From Patescibacteria group bacterium (GTDB lineage: Bacteria; Patescibacteriota; Minisyncoccia; UBA6257; GWB1-50-10): DNA of 64,000 bases. The stretch covers positions 8,265 to 72,264 of the forward strand of contig JAMCYI010000016.1 of NCBI GenBank assembly GCA_023474215.1. Direction: 5' to 3'. The position numbers and the translations under genes are program-made. Positions 2,470-3,518 of the stretch are shown here, one piece after another. How positions within the stretch are numbered: position 1 is the first letter of the stretch; the number at the start of each line of letters is the position of its first letter. A model generated the notes under the pieces. It made no database searches and was not told where the DNA came from. It worked only from the letters and a program-made list of their open reading frames with translations.

Positions 2470-2753
2470 AGCCAATGGGCGGATTTGAACCGCCGACCTA
2501 CTCCTTCGCTTACACCTCCCCTTCATGTATGCGGGAGGGCTAGACTGTATTTTTCCCCGCCAACATCTTCGAAGTTGTGGCGGGGACCCTTGTCAGTCGT
2601 TCGCTCGCCTCAACCATTTCAAAGTCTTGGCGGGACGGTCTGAGCCTTATCGGCCTTTAACCGTTATTCGGGATTCACGACGGAATCGCTTCCGACGTGG
2701 GCGGGGTTTTGCGACCCACCATGGAGTTGCTCTACCAACTGAGCTACATTGGC
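2470..2753 (-). tRNA. tRNA interrupted by ~210-nt intervening sequence in the anticodon loop (putative group I intron); isotype probably Arg (xCG), unconfirmed
   Basis: 5' exon GCCAATGTAGCTCAGTTGGTAGAGCAACTCC (2723-2753 rc) and 3' exon (CGAA)GGAGTAGGTCGGCGGTTCAAATCCGCCCATTGGCT (2470-2507 rc). Acceptor stem GCCAATG/CATTGGC and anticodon stem ACTCC/GGAGT are perfectly complementary; about 210 nt lie between the anticodon-stem halves. Confidence 0.75.
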
Positions 2754-3518
2754 TTACTCGCCGACGTATTCGTAATCTTTCAATTTGCCTACGATGACAT
2801 TCCTAAGTTTCTTATTATTGAAATAAATTGTCAACACGCCGGTATTCATCTTCCTCCGATAAATTCCCCCGCCTCGAGAAGGCGTTACTACCACTTTCTG
2901 AAAAAGATGCTTGTCGACTCCTAAATGCTTCACCCAAAAATTCAGAGCTTCGCCCGAATCCCCGTCGTTGAAAACCTGGAGCCCGAACCGCAATTTTTTC
3001 CCATCTATAGCAAAGAACGTACGGAGAAATTTTATGAAGATTCTTATAAGGGCTGGATCTGTATTGCCAAGACGAATCGAATTCCTGCTCGCTCTCGTCC
3101 CCTCGCCCCAATAGAGACCCAACCCCATACCCATAAGCTCCGCCTCCTTCAGGTTCTTTGGTTCTCTTACCAAGAAAGGATCGCCCAAGGGATTGCGTTT
3201 TTGGTACGTTGCTTCCGAACGATCCCTCCTTAGAATCTTGTATTTATTCATCCAGTAGGAAACTTTATGCTGGGAACACCCGAGTATTTTTGCCATTTCC
3301 TGCATCGATTTTCCGGATTCCCAATAAAGCTCGGAAAGGGCGCCTTTGGATACCTTTCTCGTATCTCGATCCCATTTCTTGCTCTTCGACTTGAAACGCT
3401 TGCTGTTCACCTCCGCCACCCTCGCCGCGAACTCCAATTTCTTTCTTTCTTGGATTTTTCTCTTATATCTCCCCTTCTTATAAAACACGTTGCCGCTCAT
3501 GTAAGTACATAATACCAC
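2754..3518 (-). CDS. LAGLIDADG-family homing endonuclease with N-terminal basic/HTH region
   Basis: 254 aa; single LAGLIDADG-like motif MGLGLYWGEGT; K/R-rich N-terminus with HTH-like MQEMAKILGCSQHKVSYWMNKY. Stop codon at 2754 directly abuts the tRNA 5' end at 2753. Confidence 0.7.
   Translation of the reverse strand: MVLCTYMSGNVFYKKGRYKRKIQERKKLEFAARVAEVNSKRFKSKSKKWDRDTRKVSKGALSELYWESGKSMQEMAKILGCSQHKVSYWMNKYKILRRDRSEATYQKRNPLGDPFLVREPKNLKEAELMGMGLGLYWGEGTRASRNSIRLGNTDPALIRIFIKFLRTFFAIDGKKLRFGLQVFNDGDSGEALNFWVKHLGVDKHLFQKVVVTPSRGGGIYRRKMNTGVLTIYFNNKKLRNVIVGKLKDYEYVGE

Follow-up and report, generated by a model that had tools for sequence, protein, structure and literature searches.

What is a gene doing when it ends on the base before a tRNA gene begins, and how does it relate to the intron that splits that tRNA? 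The question is raised by a locus in the window, the 64,000-nt stretch of Patescibacteria DNA analysed here, in which coordinates are positions of the whole stretch and the locus lies on the minus strand. A tRNA-Thr(GGU) gene (2753..2470) is interrupted in its anticodon loop by a 211-nt intron (2717..2507), and directly 5' of it stands a free-standing open reading frame (ORF; 3500..2754) of 248 codons and a TAA stop. The stop (2756..2754) touches tRNA base +1 at 2753, and 36 bp separate the ORF from the intron. In the answer that we favour, with a probability of roughly 0.6, two separable elements would occupy this one tRNA gene: the intron, and a selfish free-standing homing endonuclease cassette that possibly mobilises the ORF-less intron in trans. 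A sequence-only reading of the same DNA had seen the split anticodon loop, a gap of about 210 nt between the anticodon-stem halves, and an ORF outside the intron with its stop against the tRNA 5' end. All of this held up, with earlier coordinates that were off by one to five bases: ARAGORN in intron mode finds the split tRNA and its 211-nt intron at 2753..2470, and homologous split genes agree. Neither default ARAGORN nor Rfam reports the split gene, and no ORF of functional size was found inside the 211-nt intron. The longest mechanical ORF runs from a GTG at 3518 (3518..2754); homologues support the ATG at 3500, which gives a 248-residue product identical (100%, full length) to database protein P0001, annotated as 'hypothetical protein M1413_03960 [Patescibacteria group bacterium]'.

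The position of the ORF against the tRNA recurs throughout its family. At the first 13 loci, obtained by identical-protein look-ups, the ORF was always immediately 5' of tRNA-Thr(GGU), whether or not that gene had an intron. A scan of one genome per GTDB species produced 310 relatives, all from metagenome-assembled genomes (MAGs) of the candidate phyla radiation (CPR) type. At 77 of the 80 loci that were kept, the ORF was directly followed on the same strand by a tRNA-Thr(GGU), split in about 47 cases and intronless in about 30; the three exceptions comprise two contig ends and one unexplained case. Strong profile matches from 214 sources (1.26 Mb) behaved likewise, 123 of 128 lying directly 5' of tRNA-Thr(GGU) and none of the 128 inside an intron. 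The commonest geometry is a 10-nt overlap of ORF and tRNA, with the U8-A9-G10 of the tRNA serving as the ORF stop (TAG); at overlapping loci (L014-L093 and others) the acceptor stem also codes for the final residues of the protein, LP[MRK]. The window has a variant of this arrangement, with a TAA at -1 instead of the in-tRNA TAG.

Weaker profile matches at the same loci are full-length paralogues with 26-34% identity and the same layout of a helix-turn-helix (HTH) and an xLYWxEG motif. They lie directly 5' of other tRNA genes, at gaps of -38 to +22 nt: tRNA-Tyr (n = 4; L123 574-1227, L161, L085 2785-3450 and L140), tRNA-Trp (n = 4; L078 3602-4282, L031 3151-3831, L130 and L065 2785-3468), tRNA-Thr(UGU) (n = 2; L157 295-942 and L113 3-470) and tRNA-Met (n = 2; L190 2396-3100 and L117), with each subfamily tied to one tRNA gene. 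These loci were chosen around a tRNA cluster and mere proximity to a tRNA is partly ascertainment; abutment to the base pair and the rule of one subfamily to one tRNA are not. A literature search of limited reach, in which absence is not proof, returned no mention of an endonuclease-like gene outside such an intron or of LAGLIDADG genes at CPR tRNA boundaries, and the ORF family at CPR tRNA 5' ends is apparently undescribed.

The ORF and the intron occur independently of each other, in all four combinations of presence and absence. Scanning metagenomes for an intron-core pattern yielded 67 loci that bear the intron and have 650 nt or more of upstream sequence. The ORF was directly upstream in about 28 of them and undetectable upstream in 35, even with the family hidden Markov model; some of the ORF-less loci have a tRNA-Tyr just 25-168 nt upstream and represent 'empty sites'. 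Other loci carry remnants of the ORF beside intact tRNA genes. An internal deletion in L172 has left only codons from the two ends, 35 from the start and 34 from the end, joined out of frame; L104 combines a premature stop with loss of the motif region; and in L099 and L122 the C-terminal 100 and 70 codons alone remain. L131, which had been scored as ORF-less, retains at 3660-3716 a footprint of about 55 nt made up of the last codons of the ORF and the 3' spacer (..DGLIENFTVV*, as compared with ..DGLIENLSSL* in L205 at 688-742).

L131 and L205 also have a common tract of about 300 bp, reaching from -48 to +3 around the pre-tRNA, that is 92% identical overall and 98% identical across the tRNA and intron; outside it no DNA or protein similarity was found over 9.3 and 5.1 kb. 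The anticodon arm of intron-bearing genes is ACUCC/GGAGU in 35 of 52, and its last two pairs are invariant, a uniformity of the kind expected from co-conversion around the intron; intronless ORF-positive genes have diverse anticodon arms. The arm (ACTCC-ATGGTAA-GGAGT) is a near-palindrome centred on the intron insertion site and would suit a homodimeric LAGLIDADG enzyme as a candidate target. A fixed site, presence/absence polymorphism and degenerate copies together constitute the population signature of a selfish element, and the decay, the footprint, the common tract and the uniform arm are what one would expect from the gain, degeneration and loss of a homing element. Separately, the seemingly different contexts of protein P0006 (L002, L003 and L004) were discarded as mobility evidence, having turned out to be 100% identical assembly variants from one sample.

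The protein itself has a K/R-rich N-terminal helix, an HTH region at about residues 52-102 and a single LAGLIDADG-fold domain at about residues 117-242. In its AlphaFold model (predicted local distance difference test score, 84) a long N-terminal helix is followed by the helices of the HTH region, and the C-terminal part is an alpha/beta domain with the LAGLIDADG alpha/beta core fold; the long helix is restricted to the subfamily of 247-249 residues. The motif reads GLGLYWGEG (residues 126-134), with G132, E133 and G134 invariant in 34 aligned members, and paralogues retain it as xLYWxEG. We read the ORF product as a putative homing endonuclease that probably works as a homodimer. The earlier LAGLIDADG call is thus upheld by fold and motif and by no curated sequence model. 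Pfam gave weak HTH matches for the window ORF; phmmer and profile searches of PDB sequences returned tetratricopeptide-repeat or HTH noise and nothing relevant; hhalign found no match between the family profile and I-CreI; and Foldseek with the whole AlphaFold model was uninformative. A word-indexed search yielded 888 family matches, all of them from CPR and nearly all without a Pfam domain, while a profile search of 1.84 billion representatives is a poor guide to family size, its counts being inflated by proteins with many HTH repeats. As an observation in its own right, the family profile also matches proteins of 400-820 residues that have 5-14 tandem N-terminal HTH modules alone (P0130, P0132, P0144, P0145, P0150 and others).

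The cassette appears to bring its own promoter. We scored as -10-like any hexamer matching TATAAT at five or more of six positions in 93 distinct upstream regions. Such hexamers concentrate 6-9 nt before the start codon (50 of 93 regions, 36 of those 50 with a TGn extension), as compared with 18-23 of 93 in control 22-nt bins farther upstream, and no Shine-Dalgarno sequence is present at the conserved element and start. A -10-like element this close to the ATG implies a leaderless mRNA. In the window the candidate ORF promoter occupies 3520..3501, with a -10-like TATTAT at about 3514..3509 that ends 8 nt before the ATG at 3500; a generic promoter and terminator scan gave nothing above shuffles and did not call this site. 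Transcription from the cassette promoter would continue into the tRNA, whose 5' end RNase P would then release. Where ORF and tRNA overlap, one may speculate that RNase P cleavage would strip the stop codon and leave a non-stop mRNA, perhaps with low protein output.

The strongest competitor to a homing endonuclease is a domesticated, LAGLIDADG-derived DNA-binding protein akin to WhiA, which would regulate the tRNA cluster or serve another host role and would cut nothing. The HTH domain, the strong conservation across distant CPR lineages and the conserved promoter of the ORF all fit such a protein. We nevertheless consider it unlikely. WhiA has lost its catalytic acids, whereas the motif acid E133 (G-E-G) is invariant in this family, paralogues included. 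Frameshifted, truncated and deleted copies beside intact tRNAs mark the ORF as dispensable, and it is distributed patchily, being absent from 35 of 67 intron loci. The tie of each subfamily to its tRNA at base-pair precision is what site-specific insertion predicts and regulation does not. The architectures differ as well: WhiA is a conserved single-copy host gene product with two degenerate LAGLIDADG domains and a C-terminal HTH, in contrast to the single domain, N-terminal HTH, retained acidic residue, patchy distribution and decayed copies of the window family.

Less probable still, and improbable in our estimate, is that the ORF encodes a maturase, co-transcribed with the tRNA and needed for a divergent intron with a 3-bp P3 to fold and splice. 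There is precedent for such a role, since group I splicing is assisted by LAGLIDADG proteins such as I-AniI and the bI3 maturase; the ORF lies next to the intron-bearing tRNA and is probably transcribed together with it; and P3 is indeed very short. The distribution of the ORF speaks against this role: it is found at about 30 loci with an intronless tRNA-Thr(GGU), its paralogues lie against tRNA-Tyr, Trp, Met and Thr(UGU) genes that lack introns, and the ORF is missing beside at least 35 intron loci, although those genomes may hold a copy elsewhere. An obligatory cis-encoded maturase was rejected on the intronless ORF-positive and the ORF-less intron loci. A maturase role could be secondary to the nuclease role.

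The sequence-only reading had left two options, a free-standing endonuclease or a former intron ORF that had been displaced. The second, an intron-encoded endonuclease gene that has moved out, draws on the 36 bp between ORF and intron and on the abundance of intron-encoded LAGLIDADG genes in CPR rRNA introns (PMC11270868). We judge it very improbable, since none of 128 strong matches lies inside an intron, the same tRNA 5' boundary is used at about 30 intronless tRNA-Thr(GGU) genes and by paralogues at other intronless tRNAs, and the published Patescibacteria tRNA introns that contain a homing endonuclease gene carry HNH genes (PMC13011429). The first option is favoured by the occurrence of the ORF family beside tRNAs with or without an intron, its activity being predicted.

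What the intron interrupts can be read from its homologues. More than 170 homologous split tRNA genes were retrieved overall, and an alignment of 52 distinct ones was used for junction and covariation. In 52 of 52 the 5' exon ends ..YUGGU, the intron ends in G and the 3' exon begins AAGG.., with variation in the two bases that precede the terminal G (GCG, AUG, GUG, GAG, ACG). The only junction consistent across the 52 is that of Thr(GGU) at 36/37, with a 5' exon ending in U and an intron ending in G. In the window the 5' exon (GCCAATGTAGCTCAGTTGGTAGAGCAACTCCATGGT; 2753..2718) contains the acceptor 5' strand GCCAAUG, the D arm GCUC-AGUUGGUA-GAGC and the anticodon-stem 5' strand ACUCC, and ends with the loop bases A32 U33 G34 G35 U36 (AUGGU). 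The intron runs from GGGTCGC to GTAAGCG between tRNA positions 36 and 37. The 3' exon (2506..2470; AAGGAGT to CATTGGCT) comprises A37 A38, the 3' half of the anticodon stem GGAGU, the variable loop, the T arm GGCGG-UUCAAAU-CCGCC, the acceptor 3' strand CAUUGGC and the discriminator U at 2470, with no encoded CCA. Joined, the exons give a 73-nt sequence that ARAGORN calls Thr(ggt), and G1-C72, C2-G71 and the discriminator U are common to the split tRNA and the neighbouring tRNA-Thr(UGU). These comparisons settle the gene as a tRNA-Thr(GGU) interrupted at 36/37.

This displaces the earlier Arg (xCG) reading, in which exon 2 began CGAA-GGAGT: the CG is the last two bases of the intron, and the argument from the rarity of tRNA-Arg introns does not apply to a tRNA-Thr(GGU) gene. 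ARAGORN in intron mode makes the same call on the window, Arg(GCG) with an insertion at 34/35, and its isotype calls differ among loci (Arg, His, Pro, Thr) because the bases before the terminal G vary. Bacterial tRNA-Arg is expected to have A at position 20, an identity element for arginyl-tRNA synthetase, and the split tRNA has U. That the gene is a tRNA-Arg(GCG) with a 34/35 insertion, or a degenerate tRNA remnant, and the insert something other than group I is hardly credible, even with the ARAGORN call of Arg(gcg) with a 211-nt intron and the absence of an Rfam Intron_gpI match at E<=10 on its side: the 5' exon would then end in G and lose the U·G pair at the splice site, the 'anticodon' would vary among homologues (GCG, GUG, AUG, GAG, ACG and others), position 20 is wrong for Arg, every homologue has the Thr(GGU) junction, the helices of the group I fold show covariation, and the same miscall is documented for related introns (PMC13011429).

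The sequence-only reading had also proposed that the insert is a small group I intron of the kind known from bacterial tRNA genes, with the endonuclease ORF outside it, and had suggested folding the inserted segment and searching it with Rfam. The minimum free energy (MFE) fold of the precursor gives a cloverleaf plus hairpins in group I order (-118 kcal/mol, z = -4.97 against shuffles), and RNAalifold on the 52-sequence alignment yields the same helices. With the P3 pseudoknot added by hand before counting, 97.0% of the cells in 68 pairs are paired, versus 34.6-44.2% when the partners are slid by 1-3 columns; 41 of the 68 pairs show changes on both sides, and none of 500 shuffles attains any of five covariation measures. 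Given more than 170 homologous split genes, the covariation and the shuffles, neither the split gene nor its pairing is due to chance.

The helices follow one another along the intron from the 5' splice site. The P1 hairpin (2720..2700) pairs exon GGU and intron GGG (2720..2715) with CCCGCC (2705..2700) and places U36 (2718) opposite G (2702) in a U·G wobble at the 5' splice site, which is present in 52 of 52 sequences and flanked by covarying pairs. P2 (2699..2676), closed by a GNRA loop (GCGA), has changes on both sides in eight of nine pairs. In P3 the 5' strand CCC (2672..2670), after which come a G and the conserved J3/4 AAU, pairs with GGG (2589..2587). Double changes from C-G to U-A are seen at two of the three P3 pairs (L025, L062, L067), and the helix is paired in 98.7% of cells. 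P4 (ACGGUU / GACCGU; 2664..2635) is invariant and 100% paired, and encloses the P5 hairpin (2655..2643), all four pairs of which covary. In the P6 / P6a hairpin (2634..2604) four of five pairs covary (GGCG/CGCC, CCCG/CGGG, AGCG/CGCU). J6/7 CGAAC (2603..2599) precedes the P7 5' strand GACUG (2598..2594), after which come an unpaired A and CAAGGG carrying the P3 3' strand; this P7/P3' region forms the invariant block CGAACGACUGACAAGGG of the alignment, and P7 is 99.6% paired. The P8 hairpin (2586..2554) differs in length among homologues and covaries at all four counted pairs. J8/7 AAAAUA (consensus AAGAUA) and the P7 3' strand CAGUC (2553..2543) form a second invariant block, AUACAGUCUA. Five of six pairs covary in the P9 hairpin (2539..2515), beyond which UGUAAGCG ends in the terminal intron G, or omega-G, at 2507.

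P7 GACUG/CAGUC, J3/4 AAU and J8/7 AAGAUA are invariant or nearly so, and the blocks CGAAC-GACUG-A-CAAGGG and AAGAUA-CAGUC-UAG resemble the canonical R and S elements of group I introns such as that of Tetrahymena. The suggested Rfam search came back empty: RF00028 (Intron_gpI) gave no match at the gathering score, nor at E<=10 on a 481-nt query, which reflects the known blindness of that model to this intron class and not the lack of a group I core. Rfam returned no tRNA match at the split gene either. The suggested fold was found, with helices in P1-P9 order and compensatory pairs in the P3 pseudoknot, and with the U·G pair in 52 of 52, the omega-G and the covariation it bears out the proposed intron type. 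Judged by these features, the insert is a group I intron whose catalytic core looks canonical, whereas its P3 is very short and its periphery divergent; it is predicted to splice itself.

The intron itself is known. Nakagawa et al. (2026, mSystems, PMC13011429) have described introns at tRNA-Thr(GGU) 36/37 from three complete genomes of Patescibacteria (GCA_001029635.1, GCA_016700375.1 and GCA_030583745.1), where they are named 'divergent group I introns' in a passage that cites Castelle et al. 2018 (Nat Rev Microbiol). They were placed with subgroup IA; RF00028 and ARAGORN fail on them, and Table 1 of that study has two miscalled as Arg(GCG) 34/35 (PMC13011429). The window intron matches this class in host gene, 36/37 site, size range (~170-230 nt), phylum and absence of an ORF, and in its behaviour towards the tools, being invisible to RF00028 and either missed by ARAGORN or called Arg(GCG) 34/35. 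Nothing essential differs, and the window intron is a member of the published class. The same study holds that Patescibacteria tRNA introns are mostly without endonuclease genes and for that reason limited in horizontal transfer, that those published so far with an endonuclease gene carry HNH and not LAGLIDADG genes, and it mentions no ORF outside the intron (PMC13011429).

How might the two elements work together? The precursor RNA would fold to P1-P9, with P1 presenting U36 in the U·G wobble; a guanosine bound in P7 would attack at the 5' splice site, and the terminal G would then guide exon ligation to a normal 73-nt tRNA-Thr(GGU). Upstream, the cassette would consist of an extended -10 promoter and a leaderless ORF with its stop at or inside the first tRNA bases. 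Its endonuclease would cut tRNA-Thr(GGU) loci that have no cassette, and double-strand-break repair would copy the cassette in; the intron, only 36 bp from the ORF, would be copied along. The ORF would spread by intronless homing, and the intron would hitch-hike or move by trans or collaborative homing, concepts developed in PMC3984707 and PMC2790892. Read-through from the promoter and release of the 5' end by RNase P would let the host keep its tRNA. We infer nuclease activity, target site, homodimerisation, co-transcription and RNase P processing. A wider proposal, which we put forward tentatively and at somewhat under even odds, is a hitherto undescribed Patescibacteria superfamily of free-standing HTH-LAGLIDADG cassettes, each with its own leaderless promoter and often with a stop codon supplied by U8-A9-G10 of the tRNA. 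They would be specialised on the 5' boundaries of Thr-GGU, Thr-UGU, Tyr, Trp and Met tRNAs, with the Thr-GGU subfamily mobilising the ORF-less intron in trans.

Several points weigh against a selfish nuclease paired with a mobile group I intron. No family member or paralogue matches Pfam LAGLIDADG_1, _2 or _3 above threshold, the nearest being sub-threshold matches to LAGLIDADG_3 in five of 34 members (best E 0.052) and one paralogue (E 0.019). The 36 invariant columns among the 34 members would suit a host function too. An ORF-positive intronless locus (L007/L017) has the anticodon arm of intron-bearing genes, which argues against the simple idea that the intron protects the site. The loci were retrieved with probes from the window locus, and the frequencies given above are biased by this. 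For the intron, P4 and P7 never vary, so that covariation is silent on both, and P3 is just 3 bp; and among Patescibacteria tRNA introns it is those of Asn and Asp that have been shown to self-splice (PMC13011429), self-splicing of the Thr class being a prediction.

The mechanisms invoked are of known kinds; the CPR host, the predicted tRNA target, the protein family and the gene layout are new variations on them. In phages, collaborative homing has been described for F-CphI, next to an ORF-less psbA intron in cyanophage S-PM2, and for mobE / I-TevIII in T4 (Zeng, Bonocora & Shub 2009, PMC2790892; PMC3984707). There, as in the window system, ORF and intron can occur singly. The window system differs in its cellular CPR host, in having a tRNA as host gene, and in an HTH-LAGLIDADG enzyme instead of the Endo VII-like or HNH enzymes of phages; its ORF family, unlike theirs, also persists at many intronless genes, and its target is predicted. 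A second comparison is T4 SegB, a free-standing endonuclease from a phage tRNA gene cluster that reportedly (in work ascribed to Brok-Volchanskaya et al. 2008) undergoes intronless homing. The likeness lies in a stand-alone endonuclease gene between tRNA genes and a conserved tRNA region as landing site. SegB is a phage GIY-YIG enzyme, whereas the window family has the LAGLIDADG fold, resides on bacterial chromosomes, is joined so tightly to the tRNA 5' end that the two can share bases, and has tRNA-specific subfamilies. SegB is also treated in PMC13096335. Single-domain LAGLIDADG endonucleases such as I-ShaI are found in CPR rRNA insertion sequences (Tsurumaki et al. 2024, PMC11270868). They resemble the window family in phylum, in their single LAGLIDADG domain, in a presumed homodimer and in their association with highly conserved structural-RNA genes. 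They are encoded within introns or insertion sequences of rRNA genes and are recognised by Pfam LAGLIDADG_1, _2 or _3, whereas the window family lies outside introns at tRNA genes, has an N-terminal HTH and has no Pfam LAGLIDADG match above threshold.

The surroundings of the locus are those of a CPR genome. Default ARAGORN and Rfam place a tRNA-Thr(UGU) at 3664-3736 and a tRNA-Trp at 1898-1969, and directly downstream of the split tRNA (2121-2438, minus strand) is a gene for a 106-residue protein with a single MtN3/SWEET domain, a sugar transporter of the semiSWEET type. The rRNA genes are unlinked: the 5' part of the 23S gene (1-980) and the 16S gene (10810-12277) are on the same strand about 9.8 kb apart, with type IV pilus/type II secretion system genes (PilB-like ATPase, PilC-like protein, pilins), a response regulator, three tRNA genes, the SWEET-like transporter and PCMT between them. 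A 281-nt insertion (about 471-749, minus strand) separates model positions 232 and 233 in domain I of the 23S gene. Its fold is one long hairpin (-139 kcal/mol, z = -10); it contains no notable ORF, matches nothing in Rfam and is probably one of the ORF-less rRNA insertion sequences typical of CPR. The annotation of P0001, the related loci that all come from CPR-type MAGs, the unlinked 16S and 23S genes and the 23S insertion identify the host as a member of Patescibacteria/CPR. On a related metagenomic contig, ARAGORN in intron mode reports a candidate tRNA-Leu(CAG) with a 267-nt insertion at position 34 (L139 9694-10032), which may be another intron-bearing tRNA.

Taken alone, the intron is a further example of a class that publications of 2018 and 2026 have described. 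What it chiefly confirms is practical: in these genomes an essential tRNA gene is missed, or labelled Arg, by standard annotation with Rfam and default ARAGORN. More informative is the ORF, an endonuclease-like gene 36 bp outside the intron. Its family is found in hundreds of CPR species, consistently at this tRNA boundary, and shows gain, decay and loss, a strong and phylum-wide genomic pattern at odds with the 2026 inference that endonuclease-less Patescibacteria tRNA introns are immobile (PMC13011429). The layout of leaderless promoter, ORF and overlapping tRNA suggests how a selfish insertion can avoid silencing an essential tRNA. If the superfamily proposal is true, it would overturn the inference that the tRNA introns of this phylum are immobile for want of endonuclease genes. 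And if the protein is an active nuclease, the system would be the first cellular, tRNA-targeted case of intronless and collaborative homing, would explain the spread of ORF-less tRNA introns in reduced genomes, and would provide a natural set of LAGLIDADG enzymes with tRNA-gene specificities.

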